Positions 11,758 to 34,821 of a stretch of 35,370 bases of DNA are shown here, piece by piece; the first letter of the stretch is position 1; the number at the start of each line of letters is the position of its first letter. Source of the stretch: a virus. Lineage: Duplodnaviria; Heunggongvirae; Uroviricota; Caudoviricetes. The stretch spans positions 1 to 35,370 of the IMG/VR virus record IMGVR_UViG_2778261448_000004; one strand, given 5' to 3'. The position numbers and the translations under genes are program-made. The notes under the pieces are model-generated. The model was not told the DNA's origin, searched no databases, and saw only the letters and a list, made by a program, of their open reading frames with translations.

Positions 11758-12586
11758 GACGATGCCCTCCGCTGATATTCAGGAGACGGTGAATATGAAA
11801 ATTAGCCTTATCCGCCAAACGGATACGTTCAGCCTGCAAGTTAAGAAGGGTTTCTACCAGAACCTGATGCGCCTGCGGATCCGAAAGAGTTACCTTGCGC
11901 AGAGCACGTAGTGCAGTTGTTACATAACTGAGTTTATGTAAGTCTTCATCATTCAGACGAGTGAGGGCTGGGACAGTAGCCATGATGGCAGCCTCCGATA
12001 ACAGTGAATTACCTTCACCACCGGAAACGCCAATTTCGCTGGTGGTGAACTGAACGGGGTTGGCGTAACCGGCGTTATCGGAAACCGGCGCACCTTTCGG
12101 TGCCCCCGTCCAGCCCACCATAATTTGGGTGTGCGCAGACGCAGACGATAAAAAAGACGCTGGCGCGTCATATATCGCCGATAACATTTCCAGGACGCCA
12201 ATCCCGGCACCCGCTTTATAAGGTGCCTGAACAGTGTAACGTCCCGGAATGGCAGAATCAATGTGCTGGTGGTCCTTCACACTCAACAAAATCACGCCTG
12301 AATTTCCACAAAGGACTAAAGCACTCATGCGGGTAGTCTTTGCGAAGATAGATAACGCGCTGTGTTTCTGGCTCCCAACGAATAACATGGACATAAAGCC
12401 CTCTTCCGTCACGAAACCAGCGGTTAAGTTCCTGCACAACTCGCCCCCCACAGTCAGGTAAAGTTCTCTGTGGTTACTTACAGCCAGGTGATTTGGTAAT
12501 CTGCATTCATGCCGTAACAACAGGTGTGCAGCGACACTGACCACCAGCTGTTGCGACAAACGGTTATTTGCCGTTAAACTGTTCAT
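11750..12586 (-). CDS. hypothetical early protein (278 aa)
   Basis: Overlaps both neighbours by a few nt; no Walker motif; position between immunity region and replication gene. Confidence 0.6.
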   Translation of the reverse strand: MNSLTANNRLSQQLVVSVAAHLLLRHECRLPNHLAVSNHRELYLTVGGELCRNLTAGFVTEEGFMSMLFVGSQKHSALSIFAKTTRMSALVLCGNSGVILLSVKDHQHIDSAIPGRYTVQAPYKAGAGIGVLEMLSAIYDAPASFLSSASAHTQIMVGWTGAPKGAPVSDNAGYANPVQFTTSEIGVSGGEGNSLLSEAAIMATVPALTRLNDEDLHKLSYVTTALRALRKVTLSDPQAHQVLVETLLNLQAERIRLADKANFHIHRLLNISGGHRHA

Positions 12587-21216: not shown

Positions 21217-22458
21217 ATGGCAAGACAAACCAAACCTCTATCCGTTAAAGAAATAGAATCAGCCAAACCCAAGGAGGCGGACTACGTTCTCTATGATGGC
21301 GATGGCCTTGAGCTACTCATTAAATCCAGCGGGAGTAAAATCTGGCAGTTTCGCTACATTCGCCCTGTCACCAAGAAACGAGCAAAGAAGAGCATAGGCT
21401 CCTACCCGTCAGTTACCCTTGCCGATGCCAGAAACTACCGTGCAGAGTCCCGCTCACTACTGGCTAAACAGATCGATCCGCAGGAACATCAGCAAGAACA
21501 ATTGCGCAGTTCGCTGGAAGCCAAAACCAACACTTTCCAACTCGTAGCTGAACGTTGGTGGAATGTGAAGAAAGCCAGTGTGACAGAGGACTATGCGGAA
21601 GATATCTGGCGCTCTCTTGAAAGAGACGTCTTTCCTGCGATTGGCGACGTTAGCGTTACAGATATTAAAGCTCATACACTGGTTCAGGCCGTACAACCGG
21701 TTCAGGCCAGAGGAGCACTGGAAACTGTTCGTCGCCTGTGCCAACGTATTAATGAGGTCATGATCTATGCCCAGAACACAGGGCTGATTGATGCTGTTCC
21801 CAGCGTTAATATCGGTAAAGCCTTCGAGAAGCCTCAGAAAAAGAACATGCCCAGCATTCGACCGGATCAGCTACCTCAGTTAATGCAGACGATGCGAACA
21901 GCCAGCATTAGCCTTTCCACACGCTGCCTGTTCATGTGGCAACTTCTTACTATTACCCGCCCTGCCGAAGCGGCTGAAGCTCTCTGGGAAGAGGTAGACA
22001 TAGAAGCGCGAGAGTGGAAGATTCCTGCAGCACGCATGAAAATGAACCGCGACCATACTGTTCCATTGTCAGATGAAGCAATTGCGATACTAGAGATGAT
22101 GAAGCCGTTAAGTGGAAATCGAGAATTTATCTTTCCCAGCCGCATCAAGCCAAACCAGCCGATGAACAGTCAGACCGTAAACGCATCGCTAAAACGCGCA
22201 GGTTTTGGTGGGGTGCTCGTTTCACACGGCCTGCGATCTATCGCCAGTACAGCCCTTAATGAGCAGGGATTTCCACCTGATGTTATTGAGGCTGCACTTG
22301 CTCATGTGGATAAGAATGAGGTTCGTCGTGCGTATAACCGTAGTGATTATCTTGAGCAGCGACGGCCTATGATGCAGTGGTGGGCTGATTTTGTGATGGC
22401 TGCAGATCACGGTAGTATGATTGAAGGAGGGATAAAGGCAATGCGGTTAGTTGGATGA
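21217..22458 (+). CDS. intA: P4-family tyrosine integrase (CP4-57 IntA-like) adjacent to ssrA
   Basis: 413 aa starting MARQTKPLSVKEIESAKPKEADYVLYDGDGLELLIKSSGSKIWQFRY, the typical P4-type integrase N-terminus; about 205 bp downstream of the tmRNA 3' end, as for ssrA-intA in E. coli K-12 (recollection). Confidence 0.8.
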   Translation: MARQTKPLSVKEIESAKPKEADYVLYDGDGLELLIKSSGSKIWQFRYIRPVTKKRAKKSIGSYPSVTLADARNYRAESRSLLAKQIDPQEHQQEQLRSSLEAKTNTFQLVAERWWNVKKASVTEDYAEDIWRSLERDVFPAIGDVSVTDIKAHTLVQAVQPVQARGALETVRRLCQRINEVMIYAQNTGLIDAVPSVNIGKAFEKPQKKNMPSIRPDQLPQLMQTMRTASISLSTRCLFMWQLLTITRPAEAAEALWEEVDIEAREWKIPAARMKMNRDHTVPLSDEAIAILEMMKPLSGNREFIFPSRIKPNQPMNSQTVNASLKRAGFGGVLVSHGLRSIASTALNEQGFPPDVIEAALAHVDKNEVRRAYNRSDYLEQRRPMMQWWADFVMAADHGSMIEGGIKAMRLVG

Positions 22459-22596: not shown

Positions 22597-25500
22597 CTAT
22601 TTTAAATCAGCCTTTGCGGCTCGAATATCTGCGTTTTTTGCTGAGTATTCCCATTCGTCAGCGATTCTAAATAGCATTGCAGAAGTACGGACGCAGTGGG
22701 GCATTGAATTTGCCCATTCTCGGTACTGCTCAGCTAATATCCTTTCTTGGTTTCCACCTTCGTAACGCATACGAGCAAATACCCCCCTTTTATTGTACCT
22801 ACCAATTTGTATACCTTGCTCTAACTCATCAGAAGATAATATTTCAATGATGTGCCGAATTGCTTCATGTGGCCAGGAATTATCTACTGAGCTATTAGGG
22901 GCATGTGCCAGAATTTTTCCTATTACATGATCAGTGATTTCTTGGCGATGATGCAATTTTGCTAAATGGCGTACATTCTCACACCAATCTTCAAGTTTAT
23001 CTTGATCAATTTCATTGTCTATCTGCCCTGGTAGTATTCGTAATTTTTCAAGTAATCTGTATATAGAAGTAGCTCTTTTAACTTCCAACTCCGATGGTTC
23101 TGTTTGTTCATCTTCGTCACTACGATATACAATACATATTGCTTCTATAAAAACCTCTGGCTTTTTCATCATTAGACGATGCAGGATAAGTGGCTCATCG
23201 CTATCCGGAAAACAAGGCAAGTAGGTCATTTCTTTAAATGCCAAATCTGTTTCAGAAACATCGTTACGTTGTTTGAGTTCATCAAAAACTTTTTTTACAT
23301 AGTACGATAGCATTGTATCAAATTGGATATCCTGGCTATTTATTTCTTTAACGACTATATCTAGAAGATATAAAAGTGTTGTAGATGGAATCTCAGAAAG
23401 GCGTTGATTTGCTGATATAATAGCAGCAAGACCCCGGCCCCTTTCTATATATTTATCCATAAGAACAAATAAATCCGAAGTTTTACCCATCATTGCAATG
23501 GGTTGTTTTTGCAACCAATATTTTTCGTTGATGTTATCTTCAAACCCTTCAATAATGCTCCATATCTCTTGTGAGTCTCTTAACGATGCTAAGATTTTCC
23601 CAGCCCTATCAGGGGTAATTTTAAACTGTTTAAAATACACTTTTATTTTATTAAGCCATTCAGCACCAAAGCATTCAACACCATATTGCATTAACAACCC
23701 ACAAACTTCATCAATATTTTTTTTGTTGTTAATAAGCATTACAAACAAATCATTTAATTTTTCTTCATCCAACGAGAGTGCTGATATATGCCTTGCTGCA
23801 ATAAAAACATTATTAACTTGTTGAAAAAGGTCTTTCACCCCAGACAAACCTAAAGTAAAGTATATTTCCCTAAGTTTTTCACTTCGCATTTCTTCGACAG
23901 AAGAAAAAATTCCGCCAGCATTTTCAATTGACTCTTCAATATCAGAATCCCAATCATTGAAAATCCATAAACTGGCTCTAACCATGTCAATTGGTTTATA
24001 ATTATCAAGTATTTTCGCTATTTTTTCCATAGACTCAAATTTAAATGCCCAGTTCGCATCTGAATATTTTTTATGGCGAGAATACTCATGACGCAAAGCC
24101 TCCCATACGATGAACTGATCCTCTTCAGTTTGTTGAGAAAGGCAAAGTTCAAGATGAGAAAGTGTTTCATCTATTGCATTCTCAGGGAATGAGCTTAAAT
24201 GAGAGATTAGGATTTCCCATCTTGTTGGGAGTATACCTGCAAGTTTAATTGCTTCTTGGATAATAAAGATTTGCCCCTCCCAAACAACGCCCCACGTTAG
24301 TTTTTCTACATCTTTATCCGACTCTCTGAACTTCATTTTTTGGTTTTGATCAGAGGTATCATGGGAGCGAGGAAGGAGATTTTGTAACAAACTCCACCCA
24401 ATACTAGGAACAATAGTGATAATTTTTTTTATAATTGCATTTCTAACTTTTACTGGTGCCCATGTATTAGGAGACCATGCCAGAAAAATGGTTCTTAAAC
24501 TATTAAGAGGGCGATCTGAGTAAGTTCCTCCGGGATCTATTACAGCGAGTTTTGCAAGACAGATTGCAGCGCGTAATAGATATGTTTGTTCCCAAGCCAA
24601 GGCTTCCAATGCCCATTTTAATCCATGATAATGACTTCGAGGAGTTAACAGCCCTTTATCTTCATTGAATATTGGAGCAATCATTTCCCCATTGCCCTTA
24701 AGCAATTGCTCAAGGGCATCAAGGAAAGGGCCAGGGGCAGCTTCTGCCAGCAGCGGAAGTTGATCTCGCAAACTAACAAATAGTCGATGGTCGTTAGCAA
24801 GTCCCGGAATACTCTGAACTATTTTGTTAACAAAATCTTGGGGTGTCATACCAGTAACCCGGAATTCGGCCTGTTCATGTAATATTGCCATATGTAGCAA
24901 AACTGTTGTCATTCCATTACGTAACCACGAGCTATAAGACGTTTTAATACCATTGTCAGGTACAAACAGATCTTCGGCCTTTGGTGGTTCAGGAATATAG
25001 GAAAAAACCTCTCTTACGGCCTTCTCAAAACGCTCCAGGTGTTCTTCACCCAGCAAATAGCCTAAATGTACAAAAGCATCTACCGACGAACGCAATGACC
25101 AAATATCATCTACTCGGTCAATTGGAGAATCGCGGCGCTTTGTTAATAGCCTTAATGGATTTTCAACTTGAGAATAGTCTGTATAGCCAGCTAGTTGCTT
25201 GAGAATTAACTTATCTTTCTCTGAACATGTACTCCATGCACCAGCTAATAAAGCAGGGAGCAACTCAGGGCTGTCTTTCCATTCAGGTGATTCAGCCGTG
25301 CTACTTGATATCTGGCGAGCCAAAACAGACAAACTTCGGCCACACTGCCGCGCTATTTGATAACTATTATCTGAATCAAACCCCATAGATTCAAGAGCCT
25401 TACCTAAAGATATACTATCTGGGCGGATCAGAAGTTCGTGATCAGTTCGTGTTTCATCGGCTCCGGCACTTACTACTGTGATAGATGCTTGCTGTAATAA

Positions 25501-26343
25501 ACCGGCTAAAGCTCTTGCTCGATCACGTGGTAAGAAGATCATTCCTCTTTTTCCAGAAAGCTGTCTTGCAGCATCATCCGTATCAATAATTAGTGCTCGA
25601 CTTTGAAAGGAATGTCGAAGTTCCGCTTCAGTGGTTCTGATAGCTGCAATCGCAAAAGCAATAACCTCATCCGGAGAATCTGCAGCTAAAGATATTTTTC
25701 GACCATTTTCTCGTAACTCATTCAGAAAACGCTCTTTTTGCTTTTCTCTCCCCGCCAGCAAGACTGCTTCAGTTAAAGGGGGATTAAATTTAGTGGAAAA
25801 TTCATCCCAAAACTCCTTAATGCTTCTAACACCAACCTGTGGCATTAGCTCAAGATGGTAGCGAGCGTAGTAAGCAGCTACAGCAGGGCAAACACCGAGC
25901 CAATCTTCAAGCATAGAACCATCAATTAATTTGATGTCTTTCCACTTACCACTATTGCGTTTCTCTTGTAGCCAGTCTTCAAGCTTTACCTTAGGATTAT
26001 CCCATGTTCTTAATGAAGCGAAAACAAAAGTAGTCTTTAGACGTATCTCTGGAGCAACTTCGCGTGTTCTTTTTTCGTAATCAAAGTTAGCTTTATCAAG
26101 CAATTTTTCATTAACACCAAATTCCCAGAATGAGTCGCCATCAGGAACATAGGGGGCCACCCCCTCGGCTTTAAGTACACCGTCATAACCTCTAACCTGT
26201 CCCTTATCACCATTAGGAAATCTAATTTCAGTAATACTGTTAGCCGTTGCACGTATAAGATCAGCGATTAGTGCTGGAAAAATAACTTTTGCAGGAATAG
26301 AATCTGCCCATTGCTGAAGGTTAAGTGCTTTTATCCATTTCAT
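22597..26343 (-). CDS. giant hypothetical protein (1248 aa), no canonical P-loop; low-GC island cargo
   Basis: Single uninterrupted ORF with ATG and GGAG RBS; N-terminal segment with a PDGD motif (GVAPYVPDGDSFWEFGVNEK); rest predicted helical; R-x5-H (RHLAKLH) near C-terminus. Function not recognisable. Confidence 0.8.
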   Translation of the reverse strand: MKWIKALNLQQWADSIPAKVIFPALIADLIRATANSITEIRFPNGDKGQVRGYDGVLKAEGVAPYVPDGDSFWEFGVNEKLLDKANFDYEKRTREVAPEIRLKTTFVFASLRTWDNPKVKLEDWLQEKRNSGKWKDIKLIDGSMLEDWLGVCPAVAAYYARYHLELMPQVGVRSIKEFWDEFSTKFNPPLTEAVLLAGREKQKERFLNELRENGRKISLAADSPDEVIAFAIAAIRTTEAELRHSFQSRALIIDTDDAARQLSGKRGMIFLPRDRARALAGLLQQASITVVSAGADETRTDHELLIRPDSISLGKALESMGFDSDNSYQIARQCGRSLSVLARQISSSTAESPEWKDSPELLPALLAGAWSTCSEKDKLILKQLAGYTDYSQVENPLRLLTKRRDSPIDRVDDIWSLRSSVDAFVHLGYLLGEEHLERFEKAVREVFSYIPEPPKAEDLFVPDNGIKTSYSSWLRNGMTTVLLHMAILHEQAEFRVTGMTPQDFVNKIVQSIPGLANDHRLFVSLRDQLPLLAEAAPGPFLDALEQLLKGNGEMIAPIFNEDKGLLTPRSHYHGLKWALEALAWEQTYLLRAAICLAKLAVIDPGGTYSDRPLNSLRTIFLAWSPNTWAPVKVRNAIIKKIITIVPSIGWSLLQNLLPRSHDTSDQNQKMKFRESDKDVEKLTWGVVWEGQIFIIQEAIKLAGILPTRWEILISHLSSFPENAIDETLSHLELCLSQQTEEDQFIVWEALRHEYSRHKKYSDANWAFKFESMEKIAKILDNYKPIDMVRASLWIFNDWDSDIEESIENAGGIFSSVEEMRSEKLREIYFTLGLSGVKDLFQQVNNVFIAARHISALSLDEEKLNDLFVMLINNKKNIDEVCGLLMQYGVECFGAEWLNKIKVYFKQFKITPDRAGKILASLRDSQEIWSIIEGFEDNINEKYWLQKQPIAMMGKTSDLFVLMDKYIERGRGLAAIISANQRLSEIPSTTLLYLLDIVVKEINSQDIQFDTMLSYYVKKVFDELKQRNDVSETDLAFKEMTYLPCFPDSDEPLILHRLMMKKPEVFIEAICIVYRSDEDEQTEPSELEVKRATSIYRLLEKLRILPGQIDNEIDQDKLEDWCENVRHLAKLHHRQEITDHVIGKILAHAPNSSVDNSWPHEAIRHIIEILSSDELEQGIQIGRYNKRGVFARMRYEGGNQERILAEQYREWANSMPHCVRTSAMLFRIADEWEYSAKNADIRAAKADLK

Positions 26344-26810: not shown

Positions 26811-29800
26811 GTGGCAATCTTTGACATTGAAAAGGACGAATTACTTCGGCTCTCCGATATCCAGCTGGAAGAGCTGATCGCTCGGCTAGCAGAAGCTGAA
26901 GTGGCAATGCACGGCCATAGCCCAGCATGTGTAAATTGGTCTGGTTCAATTACAGCCCCTGACGGAGGAATTGACATCCATGTTCAGGTTCCAATTGATC
27001 AACTGAAAGCAGGCTTTCTTGTAAGACCTGATACGGTCTTTCAGGCAAAGAAACATAAGATGCCTAAGTCTGCAATTGAGAGGGAAATTGGCACCGGCAA
27101 AGCACTTTCTCCCATCATTTCTGAACAAGCCAGAAAGCAAGGCAGTTACATCATTGTCAGCCTGGGTGATGATTGCTCGCCGTCAGGAAAGAAGGATCGT
27201 CTCAAAGCGATGAGGGATGCAGTAAAAGATGATCCTAACGAAAGTTATCTTCATCTTGATTTCTACGACCGCTCCAAACTCATCCAATGGTTGCGCCAAC
27301 ATCCATCAGTCATGCTGTGGGTAAAAGCAAAGCTTGGGCAAGGGTATTCCGGTTGGCAACCCTACGGAGCCTGGAGCAATCCACCACAAGGTGTTATAGA
27401 CACTTTAATCTCAGCCCCAGGCGTAACCATTACTTTACCATCGGGAAAGGGGCAAAAACTCAAAATTGATGAAGCAATTAACCCAATGCGAGCACTGATC
27501 CGTTCGACAAACAAGGCTGTTCGTATTACAGGATTGTCTGGTGTTGGGAAGACTCGAATCGTTCAGGCGCTCTTTGATGAAACTGTTGGAACAGATGCGC
27601 TTGACCGAACAGTAGCTATTTATGTTGATACTGGCTATGAGCCAGTACCGTCGGCTACAGCAATGCTTGATAACCTGCTCGCTGAAGGCCGGCGAGCAAT
27701 TATGATCCTTGATAATTGCCCATCAGAACTCCATGCTTCGCTTGCCAGCAAAGTATCAGCCGCAGGGAAAGAAGTAAGTCTCATCACGATCGAGTACGAC
27801 ATTAGGGATGACAAACCACAGACAACTGAGGTCATCCACATTGAGACAGATGGTCCAGACGTGGCAGAGCAACTTCTTATCCGTCGCTTCCCTTCTATTG
27901 GTCAGAATAATGCCCGTCGGATTGCAGAGTTCGCAGATGGGAATGCAAGAGTGGCTTTGGCTATAGCGGAAAGAGTGGAAGAAGGTGAGAGTTTAGCCCT
28001 ACTTTCAGATGCGCAGTTGTTTAATCGCTTGTTTGAACAACGTAATCATCCCGACGGCCATTTACGGGAGCAAGCTGAAATATTGTCACTGGTGTATTCG
28101 TTCTCGATATCTAGTCCAGATGCAGCTACCGATGAACTGGAAATATTGGGTGTGCTCTCTGGGTATCCCAAAATCCAGTTATTCAAAGCTGTTACGAAGT
28201 TGATGGAACGTCACATTGTTCAGAAAAGATCCCACTGGAGAGCCATCCTTCCCCATGCCATTGCTAACAAGTTGGCAGCATCTGCACTTAATAGTATTCC
28301 GATTGATCAACTTAGAACGACCTTTGAAGCTCCGGATCGGCAACGATTATTGATGTCGTTCGCGCACAGGTTGGGACTATTGCATAGCCATGCTGTGGCT
28401 AAAGAGATTGTTGAAGCTTGGTTACAGCCCGAAGGGCTGCTTGGAAAAATAATAGACCTAGATGATGTATCGACACGCATTCTAAATTATATCGCTCCAG
28501 TTGCCCCAGGAGCTTTGCTTGAGAGGATTGAAGAAACGCTTGTTACGTCTAATTTTGAGCATTTTAAATCACGCTACAACCCACAACGAACAGCAATTAT
28601 CAAATTGTTGCAGTTACTTGCATATGAATCGAAATACTTTGAACGATGCATTAAGCTCTTAATCCGTATCGCAGACCAGGAAAGCGCGAGCAATAATTAT
28701 GATTCGGCTCGAAATAAGATAAAGAGGTTTTTCCAACCTTATCTATCCGGTACCCATGCCTCTTTAGAACAACGTGTTGCGATCATGAATGAATGCATTG
28801 ATTCAAGTATGGCCGAACGTAGAAGGATGGGGATCGAAATGCTTGAAACTGCTCTCGGCGGACCTCCGTGGACAGGATTCGGAATTAATGAGTTTGGTGC
28901 TAGGCCAAGAGATTATGGATTTCGACCCAGTTACGATGAACTTGTTGCGTGGCTATTCGCCTTCATCGATATTTTGGTGAGATTAGGAACCTCAGGAGTG
29001 CCCGAGCTTGAAGATGATGCCAGGCGGATCTTGGCTGATAAATTTCGCTGGATTTGGCGTCATGGAGGAATAAGGTCAAAATTAATTGATGCGGCTCGTA
29101 AGTTACATGCCCATCGCCCTTGGGGTGAAGGCTGGAAAGCTGTCCGCTCAACAATCTACTTTTTCCATACAAAAAGAAAAGATAACGAAGACGTAGAACC
29201 ATTGCCGGAAATACTTGTGACATTGGAACGAGAATTAGAACCTAAAGACTTGGTTTCGGCAATCATGGTTTATGTACTCAGTAATAGGCGCGATTTTTGG
29301 GCTCTAGATGCTGATTATGAGCACCAAGGAACTAATAAATTCAGTGAAATCAGGAAAATACTTTGTGCCAAAGCTTTCAAGTTGGGGCACGAATTTGCAG
29401 TATCTTCCCATGGACTTGATGAGTTGTGCCCTAATCTTTTTTTGCGGGATGGAATGCCGTATCGCGTCGAATTTGGTAAAGGCTTAGCTAACGGGGCTCC
29501 TGACCTACGAATTTATTGGCAACAACTAGTCATTCAATTGGATCTACAACACAAATCTCAACGTGATGTTTCGGTCATTCGAGGTTTCATTGAAGAGACT
29601 CATTCTATCGATTCAGCATTAGCGCAGGAACTGCTCGATCAGTGTGCACAACATTCCGAACTTCGATTCGAATTAGTCAACCTTCATCCTTGGCAGGAGT
29701 TTACTGAAATCGATCTGGATCGTTGCATGTCGCTTCTGGATGACTCTGACATACAGCCCCATATGTATGGGGCAATTCTGTGGGGTGAGCAATTCTCTAA

Positions 29801-30662
29801 TTTGCCAGAAAGCAGGGTCCTCGAGCTAGCTCAAAGGCTGCTGAGTAAACCGAATGGTGATGAAGTAGTATTGGAAGCACTGAGTATGAAACTAGCTGAT
29901 AAAGGAGATGCTACGGATACACTAGGTCTTGCGCTACGAACAATCGGAATATCCGCTGCAATCCAGAGGTTCCAAAGAGATCACAACGATCTCGGCGGAT
30001 ATCTGGATTATGCAATGGAACGTGTTATCGATGCCACATTGCGCTTCGATGGCAACGAGGCTGAAAAGCTAGAATGGCTGAATACAATCTTCGCTGTTGT
30101 TGATGAGCATTTTGGCTACATTTATTCTTTCGAAGACGCTATCGGTATCACCGCTGCATGGATGCCAAAAGAATTTCTCAGTCGCATTTTTGATGGTACG
30201 GAGGATCAACAACAGAGGCGGCTGCATTTCATCAATCATGATGATTCACATCAGTCTCCTATTGCGAAAATCGATGTAGATATTTTGATTGAATGGTGCA
30301 GGACCACTAAAGACCCTCAGGTTTGGGCTTCAGTCGCTTCAGGTATTAATCTATGGTCAAAAGACGGGGAGCAAAGTCCTATTTGCTTGCAGGATGATGC
30401 TCTGAGATTTCTAGAAGCCTCACCCGAGCCACGAGCCGTCCTTGAGATCTTTGCCGAACACGTAGCACCTTCATCATGGTTCGGTAGTCGTGCGAACGTG
30501 ATGCAACCTAGGGTTGAAGCGATAGGCCAGTTGGTCACCCACGAGCGTGCAGACATTTCTAAGTCGGCTAGAGCTGTTTATGAAAAACTGACTGACTGGG
30601 TTGAAAAGGAAAAAGAACGTGAGCGATTGGAAGATGAGGCATTGGAACAACGGTTTGAATAA
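26811..30662 (+). CDS. giant STAND-like NTPase (1283 aa) with N-terminal Mrr-like nuclease motif (Avs-like candidate)
   Basis: N-terminal APDGGIDIHVQ ... FQAKKH resembles the Mrr-type PD-(D/E)xK catalytic motif; Walker A ITGLSGVGKTRIV; Walker B AIMILDNC; ~900-aa helical C-terminal region. Track start is a GTG, so the true start is uncertain. Confidence 0.8.
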   Translation: MAIFDIEKDELLRLSDIQLEELIARLAEAEVAMHGHSPACVNWSGSITAPDGGIDIHVQVPIDQLKAGFLVRPDTVFQAKKHKMPKSAIEREIGTGKALSPIISEQARKQGSYIIVSLGDDCSPSGKKDRLKAMRDAVKDDPNESYLHLDFYDRSKLIQWLRQHPSVMLWVKAKLGQGYSGWQPYGAWSNPPQGVIDTLISAPGVTITLPSGKGQKLKIDEAINPMRALIRSTNKAVRITGLSGVGKTRIVQALFDETVGTDALDRTVAIYVDTGYEPVPSATAMLDNLLAEGRRAIMILDNCPSELHASLASKVSAAGKEVSLITIEYDIRDDKPQTTEVIHIETDGPDVAEQLLIRRFPSIGQNNARRIAEFADGNARVALAIAERVEEGESLALLSDAQLFNRLFEQRNHPDGHLREQAEILSLVYSFSISSPDAATDELEILGVLSGYPKIQLFKAVTKLMERHIVQKRSHWRAILPHAIANKLAASALNSIPIDQLRTTFEAPDRQRLLMSFAHRLGLLHSHAVAKEIVEAWLQPEGLLGKIIDLDDVSTRILNYIAPVAPGALLERIEETLVTSNFEHFKSRYNPQRTAIIKLLQLLAYESKYFERCIKLLIRIADQESASNNYDSARNKIKRFFQPYLSGTHASLEQRVAIMNECIDSSMAERRRMGIEMLETALGGPPWTGFGINEFGARPRDYGFRPSYDELVAWLFAFIDILVRLGTSGVPELEDDARRILADKFRWIWRHGGIRSKLIDAARKLHAHRPWGEGWKAVRSTIYFFHTKRKDNEDVEPLPEILVTLERELEPKDLVSAIMVYVLSNRRDFWALDADYEHQGTNKFSEIRKILCAKAFKLGHEFAVSSHGLDELCPNLFLRDGMPYRVEFGKGLANGAPDLRIYWQQLVIQLDLQHKSQRDVSVIRGFIEETHSIDSALAQELLDQCAQHSELRFELVNLHPWQEFTEIDLDRCMSLLDDSDIQPHMYGAILWGEQFSNLPESRVLELAQRLLSKPNGDEVVLEALSMKLADKGDATDTLGLALRTIGISAAIQRFQRDHNDLGGYLDYAMERVIDATLRFDGNEAEKLEWLNTIFAVVDEHFGYIYSFEDAIGITAAWMPKEFLSRIFDGTEDQQQRRLHFINHDDSHQSPIAKIDVDILIEWCRTTKDPQVWASVASGINLWSKDGEQSPICLQDDALRFLEASPEPRAVLEIFAEHVAPSSWFGSRANVMQPRVEAIGQLVTHERADISKSARAVYEKLTDWVEKEKERERLEDEALEQRFE

Positions 30663-30707: not shown

Positions 30708-31454
30708 ATGGAATCTGCACGTAATAAATATACCAGTGAGATTATTGAGGCAGAAGATCTTTGGTTACTTGATGTTGTAGATACGAACGGTTACGTATGC
30801 TGGGGATGTGGGATTGAGATGTATCCTTCCGCTTGGCAAAAAGGAAGTAAGAAAAGACCGTCGTTTAATAAAATGCCTGGAAAAGAGCATATTAACTGTG
30901 ATGCAGATGCTGAAAGCACAGTGGTTAAGCAGGGACAGAAAAAAAGCGTCCGCAACATGCTAGACAGCGCACCGGGTTTGATGCCCGCAGGGTTAAAATT
31001 GATTGAACAACGACCCGTTGTTGATCCTGGCACTACTGGTAGCGACAACAACACCAATCCAATACGTTCTACATCGTCAGCATCCAGCGGGGGAAATGCT
31101 CCAGCGCGGCAATCCCGCCGCCCGGTTAATGCTATTCGCCAGATTTGTAGGGCATTTATTCGCTTCCCGTATGACCGTGGTATGTCATTAAATATCCCAG
31201 GTATTGATGCCGATACTTACATGACCGTGTTTAAAAAACTAAAAGACCCGGTTCAACCCTACCCTGAGCGCCGAGTTTTTTATTCGCAGTTGTTATGGCA
31301 GAAATTTGAGCAAGACGAAAACCGAATTGTCATTCCGCTCTCGGGAGAATGGGCAAAAGACGAATCTGGTAAGTTTAAGCCCTCGCGTAGCTATAAACTA
31401 CACATTGAGTGGGGAGACTGGTCAAAAGCCAAAAAAGACTATGCTTTTGAATGA
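30708..31454 (+). CDS. hypothetical protein (248 aa) co-transcribed downstream of the STAND gene
   Basis: ATG 30708 with AGGAG RBS 46 bp after the STAND stop; Cys cluster YVCWGCG ... HINCD (possible zinc ribbon); Ser/Gly/Thr-rich linker. Confidence 0.7.
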   Translation: MESARNKYTSEIIEAEDLWLLDVVDTNGYVCWGCGIEMYPSAWQKGSKKRPSFNKMPGKEHINCDADAESTVVKQGQKKSVRNMLDSAPGLMPAGLKLIEQRPVVDPGTTGSDNNTNPIRSTSSASSGGNAPARQSRRPVNAIRQICRAFIRFPYDRGMSLNIPGIDADTYMTVFKKLKDPVQPYPERRVFYSQLLWQKFEQDENRIVIPLSGEWAKDESGKFKPSRSYKLHIEWGDWSKAKKDYAFE

Positions 31455-31621
31455 GCTTGAAACTGTGCAGGAAGAAGCAAAAGAAGCAGTAAATAAAAAA
31501 GCTAAAGAGAGAGCTCAAGTCTTCTTTATCGGTGAACAAAGCACTGAGAATCCGGAAATCTTCTACGTGAGTGATTACCGGTTAATCTGTGCGATTATGG
31601 GATATATAATTTACCCCTGAC

Positions 31622-31658
31622 GTAAATGGGCCTTCTTGCAAAATGCAGGCCCATTTAC
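31622..31658. terminator. 11-bp perfect inverted repeat (candidate bidirectional terminator or binding site)
   Basis: GTAAATGGGCC - 15-nt loop - GGCCCATTTAC between the convergent 248-aa and 293-aa genes; flanking sequence AT-rich but without a clean T-run. Confidence 0.4.
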
Positions 31659-31887
31659 ATAATTATTTTCGACTACCACTAAGGCTACTTCAAACCTATA
31701 AATTTCATTCAATTTCTCGTGTAGACACAATTACAACAGTCATCATAACAATAGTCATATTAACAATGATTGGTTTTCCAATAGATTTATGTGGGGTATT
31801 TTCATAGCGATGTAATTTCAAACCCATCAAGACTGATCGTATAGTAGCCCTCCTGATAGACATAAAAATATCAAAACCATAATAATA

Positions 31888-32769
31888 TTAATTGTTAGTA
31901 TTGTTCTTTAGGACTTTATCAATCTCTACTTTTAGATCACCTGTAGACCATTTATTAAGTCTGCGGCGGATAGTTTCCTCTCTATCGCCTGTATCATTTA
32001 TCCATTTATCTGGATTGACCTTTTTATCATTATTACAAATATAGGGCATTAAATATTCAAGAAGTTGACGTTTATTTTTCCAGTCGCTATGTGAAGGAAT
32101 ATCTTCAAGTAAGATAACAACTGTATCTTTAATATATTCAAGTTCTGCAAGTTTATTTTTCCCTCCAGCGCTTGAGCGCGCTCTTCTGCATACTTTATCA
32201 AAACCACTTCTTAATCGATAAAAACTCGGTAAGTCTCGGTTATCATCTCGCGAAATACAGACATTCATATAAGAATAAGCATCAAGAAGAAACTTACAAC
32301 TTTCTTTTTTATTGCCCAATGAATATTGGAACTGCGCCCAGTAAAAATCTTCTAAAGCCATAGATAGATATATATATTCATAATGTGCATCATATAGTCT
32401 TGCTAATCCTGTCAGTTTATACCCGTCCATTTTTCCTCGAATTTCAATCCGATATTCTGCATATGTTTCCTTATAAATAAAAGGTTTCTCAACCATTATT
32501 CCATCAACATTTATAAACTCTTGTGAGTAGCGTATATTGTCGCTATTAGTCATATCTACAAAATATTGACATTGTATTTTTGAATACTCAATAATTTTAA
32601 ATTCTTCAATTTTATCATAGGCTCTTTGCCTGTAAGTGCGCAGAACATCCTGGTTGCTCTCCTTTTTTTCGACTTCAAGTTTCCATTCCAGCTCAAGAAG
32701 TTTGTCCTCACAAGCGGTACAAACTTGCAGATAGAAATCATCAAAAAAATTCGCACTCACATCCTTCAT
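31888..32769 (-). CDS. hypothetical protein (293 aa), AT-rich orphan gene
   Basis: Very low-GC ORF with Lys/Asn/Tyr-rich composition; divergent from alpA; no recognisable motif. Confidence 0.7.
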   Translation of the reverse strand: MKDVSANFFDDFYLQVCTACEDKLLELEWKLEVEKKESNQDVLRTYRQRAYDKIEEFKIIEYSKIQCQYFVDMTNSDNIRYSQEFINVDGIMVEKPFIYKETYAEYRIEIRGKMDGYKLTGLARLYDAHYEYIYLSMALEDFYWAQFQYSLGNKKESCKFLLDAYSYMNVCISRDDNRDLPSFYRLRSGFDKVCRRARSSAGGKNKLAELEYIKDTVVILLEDIPSHSDWKNKRQLLEYLMPYICNNDKKVNPDKWINDTGDREETIRRRLNKWSTGDLKVEIDKVLKNNTNN

Positions 32770-32882
32770 GAAAAGTAAATCCCTAAAGTGATTTTATTTT
32801 AATGTTACTTCCAGTGTATGACAGCCCCAGCGTGGTTGGCAATATGGACCCACCTGAACAAACTCATACTAAGGAAGCCTAG

Positions 32883-33122
32883 ATGTTACAGAACCCTCCC
32901 TCCTTACATACATCCAGTTACGCAAATATTCCTGATTCACCGAGGATCTTGAGGCTAAAAGATGTCATGAAAAAAATGGGAATTTCACGCTCAACCATAT
33001 ACGACTGGCTTAATCCAAAATCGCCACGCTACGATGGAACATTTCCAAAACAAAAACGCTTGGGAAGGCAATCCGTTGGCTGGCTGGAGTCAGAACTGAA
33101 TGAATGGGTAATGCGACGTTAG
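32883..33122 (+). CDS. alpA: AlpA-family phage transcriptional regulator
   Basis: 79 aa; RILRLKDVMKKMGISRSTIYDWLNPKSPRYDGTFPKQKRLGRQSVGWLESELNEWV matches the AlpA HTH signature (TIYDWLNPKSPRYD). Confidence 0.8.
   Translation: MLQNPPSLHTSSYANIPDSPRILRLKDVMKKMGISRSTIYDWLNPKSPRYDGTFPKQKRLGRQSVGWLESELNEWVMRR

Positions 33123-33287: not shown

Positions 33288-34821
<1,534 letters not shown>

Follow-up and report, generated by a model that had tools for sequence, protein, structure and literature searches.

The question raised by this locus is what a single AT-rich gene does at the edge of defence cargo, where it lies between the Avs8 system and the regulator gene alpA. The locus was analysed in a stretch of 35,370 nucleotides (IMG/VR record IMGVR_UViG_2778261448_000004, positions 1 to 35,370; Caudoviricetes), which in its full length is here called the window. 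By annotation the gene is an ordinary conserved hypothetical gene, and the initial annotation, made from the letters alone, had described it as a separately acquired orphan and a candidate for a single-gene abortive infection (Abi) protein or toxin. Results presented here indicate that the gene was paired with alpA in every context in which it was found, that profile comparison relates its predicted product to YfjH of Escherichia coli K-12, and that the best-supported guess, still a tentative one, is a role in control of the island, followed by that of an effector in a fixed slot. The features on which this argument turns are as follows.

31888..32769, minus strand: YfjH-like gene (the target), an ATG-to-stop open reading frame (ORF) of 293 amino acids
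32770..32882: control region, 113 bp between the start codons of the YfjH-like gene and alpA
32883..33122, plus strand: alpA, AlpA-family helix-turn-helix (HTH) regulator or excisionase-type protein, 79 amino acids (Pfam Phage_AlpA PF05930, 2.8e-21)

The divergent arrangement of the target and alpA, already noted in the initial annotation, was confirmed, as was the identity of alpA, and the same arrangement was evident far beyond the window. Thus, the YfjH-like gene adjoins and diverges from alpA in all of about 10 distinct contexts, which include several enterobacterial genera, metagenomes and K-12. In Photorhabdus viridis, P. tasmaniensis, Intestinirhabdus alba and Chimaeribacter coloradensis, a homologue with about 56-70% identity to the target diverges from an adjacent alpA that is followed by a GTPase gene, and at six metagenome loci a homologue was again found beside and divergent from alpA. 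At one metagenome locus the homologue was only 33% identical and AlpA 58% identical, the spacing was still 113 nt, and the backbone of the island consisted of YfjI, YfjJ and DUF932 instead of the GTPase. Among complete E. coli genomes the alpA allele of the window was present in 161, of which 149 also carried the target. In two further records that were sampled, alpA was more diverged (about 94% identical) and nothing matched upstream of mid-alpA; in strain 1504D004 (locus L008), the one of the two that was examined, a 240-amino-acid YfjH-like variant found in only 7 genomes lies upstream instead. The K-12-type yfjH and alpA occurred together in all 364 carrier genomes (of 5426 complete E. coli genomes). 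Three GTPase-type islands without an adjacent alpA were also sampled; in two of them ORFs that lie upstream or are divergent were tested and proved unrelated to the YfjH-like family. The target is thus invariably paired with alpA in the contexts found, which suggests that the protein belongs to the control module of the island.

The description of the gene as an orphan did not hold, since the predicted protein has a family and the search for remote homology linked this family to K-12 YfjH (b2623, cryptic prophage CP4-57; PHROG 19089, function unknown). The alignment of the two families with hhalign extended over 209 columns (probability 96%, E 4e-9), and a BLASTP comparison of the target with K-12 YfjH matched the C-terminal 143 amino acids (26% identity, E 2e-6). 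A third member, the 240-amino-acid protein of L008, diverges from a related alpA on another island at ssrA, the transfer-messenger RNA (tmRNA) gene, and matched the joint profile with a probability of 98.6% (E 6.5e-16). PHROG 19089, which is the profile of the YfjH family itself, gave no match to the target at E<=0.1, as opposed to matches to 12 of 22 superfamily members; the target is therefore on a separate, remote branch outside the YfjH family proper. Profile comparison shows the predicted product to be a remote member of an uncharacterised YfjH-like superfamily. Like the target, K-12 YfjH occupies the slot on the int side of an adjacent alpA, in the same orientation and divergent from it, carries the C-terminal motifs GGKxK, GWKxK and WS, is AT-rich and is confined to islands of Enterobacterales. 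In contrast, identity between the two is only about 18-26%, the N-terminal 90-130 residues cannot be aligned, the spacer to alpA is 113 bp at the target as opposed to 43 bp at K-12 yfjH, and the gene 3' of alpA is a YeeP/YfjP-type GTPase at the target as opposed to yfjI in K-12.

The range of these proteins was narrow. A word-indexed search of 5.8 billion proteins returned 19 clusters for the family of the target, none with a functional name or a Pfam domain, and an exhaustive HMMER search of 1.84 billion representatives returned 20 homologues, all unannotated; the named source organisms of the family were Enterobacterales only. With a profile of the C-terminal domain, which picks up both the target and the YfjH groups, 66 clusters were found among the 5.8 billion proteins, all labelled 'hypothetical' and all from Enterobacterales. 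Homologues of the target were absent from 50,697 phage records, 72,556 plasmids and IMG/VR in homology searches. The earlier remark that no motif could be recognised was borne out by Pfam, NCBIfam and PADLOC, none of which gave anything above noise for the target. Thus, 5027 PADLOC models yielded 0 families at E<=1 for the target and no match for seven superfamily members, and across the three resources no homology to a known defence or Abi protein family was noted for the target or the members tested.

The protein appears to consist of two dissimilar parts. A charge profile showed the N-terminal half, which is mostly helical, to be acidic (isoelectric point 4.8) and the C-terminal domain (about 160 amino acids) to be basic (isoelectric point 8.8), with a strongly basic patch around the GG-K motif and no membrane segment in the target. 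Four motifs, i.e., FYW[GA], SSxGG[KR]xK, PxxGWKxK and xWS, characterise the C-terminal domain of about 160 residues throughout the superfamily and are kept down to 15-20% identity in the superfamily alignment; in the target they read FYWA (141-145), SSAGGKNK (199-206), DWKNK (229-233) and KWS (273-275). Invariant columns across the family were of L, W, G and A together with one K and one S, those of the wider superfamily were only a W and a G, and neither alignment contained a conserved D/E/H catalytic set. The product is apparently soluble, mostly helical and non-enzymatic.

Several results bear on whether the ORF is a functional gene and on the age of its alleles. As the initial annotation had stated, the 293-amino-acid ORF is of very low guanine-plus-cytosine (GC) content and differs in composition from its neighbours (GC 0.334, and 0.265 at third codon positions, compared with 0.438 for alpA, 0.455 for Avs8A, 0.451 for Avs8B and 0.453 for the whole window); the target region is the most AT-rich part of the right end of the island. 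The claim that it is an independent gene also stood, the target forming its own transcription unit: a promoter scan found a sigma-70-like promoter (CTGTCA-17-TAAAAT, 32824-32796, minus strand) 5' of the target, and an AGGGA Shine-Dalgarno sequence precedes its start codon. End-to-end alignment of 14 family members (53-87% identity, with 53-59% across genera) contained 70 invariant columns, and codon comparison with four orthologous loci gave ratios of nonsynonymous to synonymous substitution (dN/dS) of 0.24-0.38, with synonymous divergence (dS) of up to 1.15. The conservation and the dN/dS values indicate that the target is a protein-coding gene under purifying selection. Moreover, of the 149 complete E. 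coli genomes with the target nearly all had the ORF intact, and the identical protein was found again in thousands of assemblies; some copies of the target or its homologues were disrupted by insertion sequence (IS) elements or frameshifts. Between loci, dS was 0.8-1.15 for the target and 0.16-0.45 for the adjacent alpA and GTPase genes, i.e., three to five times higher for the target. From this high dS, together with dN/dS of about 0.3, it follows that the alleles are older than the backbone and have been shuffled by recombination, and old alleles under purifying selection are the pattern that would be expected of specificity or immunity determinants and of conflict genes.

The only small ORF adjacent to the target (31705-31863, minus strand, 52 amino acids) is hydrophobic and lies just downstream on the same strand. 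In loci L009 and L028, which are 95-98% identical, it is broken by frameshifts or stop codons; it has no counterpart at other loci and is probably not a gene. Since this ORF is not conserved, the target lacks the conserved small partner that a toxin-antitoxin pair would have at its side.

The position of the gene relative to the defence genes was evident from comparison of the flanks of the target, for which the following features are needed.

26811-30662, plus strand: Avs8A (PD-lambda-4_A), 1283 amino acids, PADLOC 2530 bits
30708-31454, with an out-of-frame continuation to 31620, plus strand: Avs8B (PD-lambda-4_B), PADLOC 544 bits
31622..31658, plus strand: inverted repeat, 12+12 nt with a 13-nt loop
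31659..31887: spacer of 229 bp, GC 0.33, from the Avs8 hairpin to the stop codon of the target, in which homology to other islands ends

The pair of giant genes from which the target had been reported to differ in composition is thus PD-lambda-4 (Vassallo et al. 2022), now named Avs8, a STAND NTPase system that defends against phages by sensing their major capsid proteins, and it constitutes defence cargo. In strain ECOR29 the block of the window is part of an island at the ssrA site, i.e., the CP4-57 site, with the gene order int, a 1248-amino-acid gene, Avs8A, Avs8B, target, alpA and YeeP/YfjP-type GTPase. The intact island continues past the GTPase with YfjI, YfjJ, DUF932, RadC, DUF987 and the toxin-antitoxin pair CbeA/CbtA. 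Nucleotide identity to related loci was 85-97% over alpA and the GTPase and 60-79% over the target, and was no better than random past the stop codon of the target, which places the boundary between backbone and cargo in the spacer at 31659..31887. The opposite flank of the YfjH-like gene differed accordingly between islands, being Avs8 here, a Lamassu-like ABC-3C operon in Photorhabdus, a gene for a metallo-beta-lactamase-fold protein together with Hachiman in Chimaeribacter, and int directly in K-12. Alleles and cargo were also found in different combinations: the metallo-beta-lactamase and Hachiman cargo of locus L031 (5685-8985) and that of Chimaeribacter locus L005 (10876-13770) are 93% identical over 2.66 kb while their YfjH-like alleles are 57% identical, and the alleles of L031 and L003 (Photorhabdus viridis) are 83% identical while their cargo is unrelated, the alpA/GTPase backbone being 85-97% identical throughout. 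The pairing, the end of homology and the reassortment of alleles and cargo together indicate that the target is the last element of a conserved alpA-side module and is outside any cargo system. Judged from these alignments, the gene is not cargo; insertions of defence cargo, which varies, are found past its 3' end. The separate acquisition suggested by the initial annotation was not supported, in that homologues are syntenic with alpA wherever they were found and the target is the last homologous segment of the alpA-side backbone.

The inverted repeat that had been assigned to the target is real but starts 2 nt past the stop codon of the frameshifted Avs8B frame and 229 nt from that of the target. 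Strain FEX669, which has an intact Avs8B, contains the identical repeat, and no such repeat was found downstream of homologues of the target in other genera. Because it abuts the Avs8B stop codon and is missing 3' of the homologues, the repeat belongs to the Avs8 operon and not to the target, and it is likely the 3' hairpin or terminator of that operon. A different sequence flanks the homologues on this side: loci L003, L004, L031 and L033 share a conserved 3' flank (…ACAGTATCAGAGGGGCTG…TATATTCAGGG…GTAATGCAAA…), at about 100 nt past the stop codon of the homologue and ahead of the point where the cargo diverges, and of this the window retains only a 13-nt remnant, TATCAGGAGGGCT, at about 31846-31858. 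The shared flank may be a terminator or a recombination boundary.

The region between the two divergent genes contains, besides the promoter of the target, the ribosome-binding site of alpA (AAGGAAG) and three copies of a short repeat.

32772-32778 and 32785-32791: direct copies of AAAGTRA, beside the start codon of the target
about 32803-32809: inverted copy of AAAGTRA (GTTACTT), beside the start codon of the target

The length of this spacer was usually 113-119 bp among YfjH-like/alpA loci. Between the window and Chimaeribacter L005 the spacers were about 90-95% identical, compared with only 56% identity of the proteins. The spacers of L034, L008 and L007 (K-12), although dissimilar in other respects, also contained heptamers of the AAAGTRA class, and of the 15 copies of AAAGTRA in the 35-kb window, 2 are within 20 nt of each other in this spacer. 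The repeats look like a candidate operator shared by these loci.

The explanation that best accommodates the pairing, tentative though it is, is that the product of the target acts alongside AlpA, as a non-enzymatic and diversified partner, within the module that regulates CP4-57-type islands. In such a module the basic C-terminal domain would anchor the YfjH-like protein at the divergent promoter region or on AlpA, the anchored protein would set the level of alpA expression and hence excision or activation of the island, and the acidic N-terminal half, which diverges fast, would determine the input to which each allele responds. The protein would thus resemble the repressor in divergent repressor/activator switches such as Stl/Str of Staphylococcus aureus pathogenicity islands (SaPIs) or AlpR/AlpA of Pseudomonas aeruginosa. 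Binding of DNA or AlpA and any regulatory effect of the protein are inferred. A more specific and rather doubtful version of this proposal is that the YfjH-like family is the missing AlpA control partner in enterobacterial CP4-57-type islands, which would, through a previously undescribed DNA- or AlpA-binding C-terminal domain, hold alpA in check until an allele-specific signal (e.g., a phage protein sensed by the N-terminal half) is received, as a Gram-negative functional counterpart of Stl. For AlpA-type Gram-negative satellites the global repressor has been called 'unclear' and AlpA described as an auto-activating inducer (PMC6092414).

The comparison with the Stl/Rpr master repressors of Gram-positive phage-inducible chromosomal islands (Stl of SaPIs) rests on several likenesses. 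Like the target, Stl and Rpr are of similar size, are the leftward member of a divergent pair beside an excision or activation gene near int, and are highly divergent between islands with otherwise conserved backbones; both would act as specificity determinants, a role given as 'unclear' for AlpA-type elements. The Stl-type layout was found here in that the target diverges from alpA and int is on the same side, adjacent in K-12 and beyond the cargo in the present island. In contrast, there is no sequence similarity between the two groups, no HTH or other DNA-binding domain was detected in the target (its basic C-terminal half is suggestive) and the conserved part is C-terminal in the family of the target as opposed to the N-terminal HTH of Stl. 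Moreover, the host islands of the target are of the CP4-57 type and are not demonstrated phage satellites. A second likeness is to the AlpR-AlpA pair of Pseudomonas aeruginosa, in which AlpR, a LexA-like, autocleaving repressor with an HTH and an S24 peptidase, is encoded divergently from alpA and controls its expression. Membership of the LexA/AlpR type was excluded, as the target gave no Pfam match to an HTH or S24 peptidase; the likeness is thus in layout only.

A number of observations weigh against a control role, and part of them favour at the same time the next-best explanation. Many alpA genes (those of phage-inducible chromosomal islands, of P4-like elements and of locus L021) have no YfjH-like neighbour, and the protein is therefore not a general requirement for AlpA function. 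The AAAGTRA repeats equally could be sites for AlpA. No DNA-binding or other domain was detected by Pfam in superfamily members (8, then 47 members, scanned at E<=1-5), the nearest results being weak, sub-cut-off matches to DUF2585 in 14 members and a match to T4_y05I_N in one (E 0.005). Profile searches of the PDB with the full-length family, the C-terminal domain and the whole superfamily gave nothing significant, and AlphaFold2 models made from single sequences had mean local confidence (pLDDT) values of 41 for the full protein and 45 for the C-terminal domain and were not usable. The best PDB match of the C-terminal profile was to the ribbon-helix-helix protein TraY of the F-plasmid relaxosome (E 0.03, on the motif GW[CK]K[TS]); this lead was rejected, as the hhalign probability was 23% against the single sequence and 1.6% against an alignment of six TraY family members. 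In addition, the target is AT-rich (GC 0.33), which is typical of horizontally acquired defence genes, it or its homologues are at the edge of defence cargo (Avs8, Lamassu-like or Hachiman) and its allele lineages are old, divergent (dS about 1) and reassort on a conserved backbone. Finally, the literature on yfjH (b2623) consists of screen results only, i.e., its identification as a 'blocker' of the retron-Sen2 toxin RcaT when overexpressed and its appearance on a sigma-S run-off array, and the former, which is the sole functional datum for the superfamily, is not specific to island regulation.

These last points, together with the narrow and island-confined range of the superfamily, are in keeping with an accessory effector that works on its own from a fixed slot next to alpA. 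It would be an anti-defence or anti-toxin factor, or else a defence that consists of one gene (Abi or superinfection exclusion); its alleles would diversify in an arms race with phages or other defence systems, and its pairing with alpA would reflect only co-regulation or a favoured point of insertion. This explanation is a serious rival, though a less probable one than a control role. The slot is always filled with homologous alleles, unlike the unrelated genes that are usual in defence hotspots, and spacer and orientation relative to alpA are kept even on different island backbones. PADLOC gave no match, searches of phage, plasmid and IMG/VR sequences gave no homologue, and neither conserved catalytic residues nor a conserved antitoxin partner ORF was noted. 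For the separately acquired single-gene Abi protein or toxin proposed in the initial annotation no support was found, given that the gene is paired with alpA even at 33% identity, reassorts with respect to cargo and is without a PADLOC match or a partner ORF; a defence or toxin role as such may still apply, but nothing specific points to it.

That the target is a third, unrecognised component or regulator of Avs8 is highly improbable and is essentially excluded, despite the association of the two in E. coli. There, and likewise in Shigella and related metagenome contigs, the allele found here is inherited together with Avs8A and Avs8B as a block of about 6.2 kb with at least 99% identity (in 131 genomes, 80% or more of the block is covered), and the target is convergent with the Avs8B gene, with a 267-bp 3' intergenic region common to both. 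Outside this allele, however, the target is not syntenic with Avs8: homologues with 54-59% identity lie beside Lamassu-like or Hachiman cargo without Avs8A, the same cargo occurs with different alleles, and past the stop codon of the target no homology to other islands is left. The target matches neither of the two PADLOC models of the system and is not required for defence, since Avs8A and Avs8B alone protect MG1655 from lambda and BASEL phages. Still less probable is that the region is an AT-rich spacer that nucleates H-NS to silence alpA and contains a decaying ORF, which would fit the silencing of the alpA promoter of a CP4-57-like island by bound H-NS in Shewanella (PMC5148205), the AT-richness of the region and the IS- or frameshift-broken copies but is at odds with the dN/dS values, the 70 invariant columns, the retention of motifs to 15-20% identity, the intact ORF in nearly all carrier genomes and the identical protein in thousands of assemblies; silencing of the target region by H-NS is plausible, and H-NS binding would not contradict a coding function.

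Other observations concern the neighbours of the target. The Avs8B ORF of the window covers only positions 1-245 of the 303-position PADLOC profile; the gene is split by one extra A in an A-run at about 31425-31431 (A7 compared with A6 in FEX669, where the protein is intact at 303 amino acids). Annotations of ECOR29 and of ten more sampled assemblies with the at least 99% identical block that is common to most E. coli carriers show the split Avs8B too (248 amino acids, followed by a tail out of frame), which may represent a pseudogene, phase switching at the homopolymer or a truncation that is tolerated. In Photorhabdus viridis (L003, 13120-19614) an intact Avs8B homologue of 305 amino acids (PADLOC 595 bits) is located right after the Lamassu-like ABC-3C operon (LmuA-, LmuC- and LmuB-like), with no Avs8A before it, which suggests that 'Avs8B' is a module able to travel with other systems. 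Between the integrase gene (21217-22458) and Avs8A, the 1248-amino-acid ORF (22597-26343, minus strand) is transcribed divergently from Avs8A, and in many other strains IS elements have broken it up; it gave no Pfam or PADLOC match and may be an uncharacterised large defence-island gene. On the other side of alpA, an IS3-family element (from 33608) truncates the GTPase gene (33288-33600), of which about 99 codons are left; this gene is intact (294 amino acids) in the FEX669, Photorhabdus and Chimaeribacter loci. Rfam matches above the gathering score were to isrC (33640-33762, plus strand, 150 bits), barely within the part disrupted by the IS element beyond the truncated GTPase gene, and, on a different mobile element earlier in the window, to C4 antisense RNA (12038-12125, minus strand, 83 bits) and isrK (12150-12226, minus strand, 64 bits). 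Rfam identified no tRNA or tmRNA gene in the window and gave no match within 31600-32900.

Whichever explanation applies, the annotation of this locus is corrected in that the neighbours of the ORF are Avs8/PD-lambda-4, the inverted repeat is theirs, and the ORF goes with alpA and not with the cargo. If the target were a defence or anti-defence gene in a fixed slot, one small family would be added to a long list. CP4-57-type islands at ssrA and tRNA sites, on the other hand, rank with the most frequent carriers of E. coli defence systems and virulence genes, and the pairing with alpA, the common control region and the old, reassorting alleles make the target a concrete candidate for the repressor of the AlpA switch. 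If this is true, yfjH, a y-gene of K-12, would gain a testable function.

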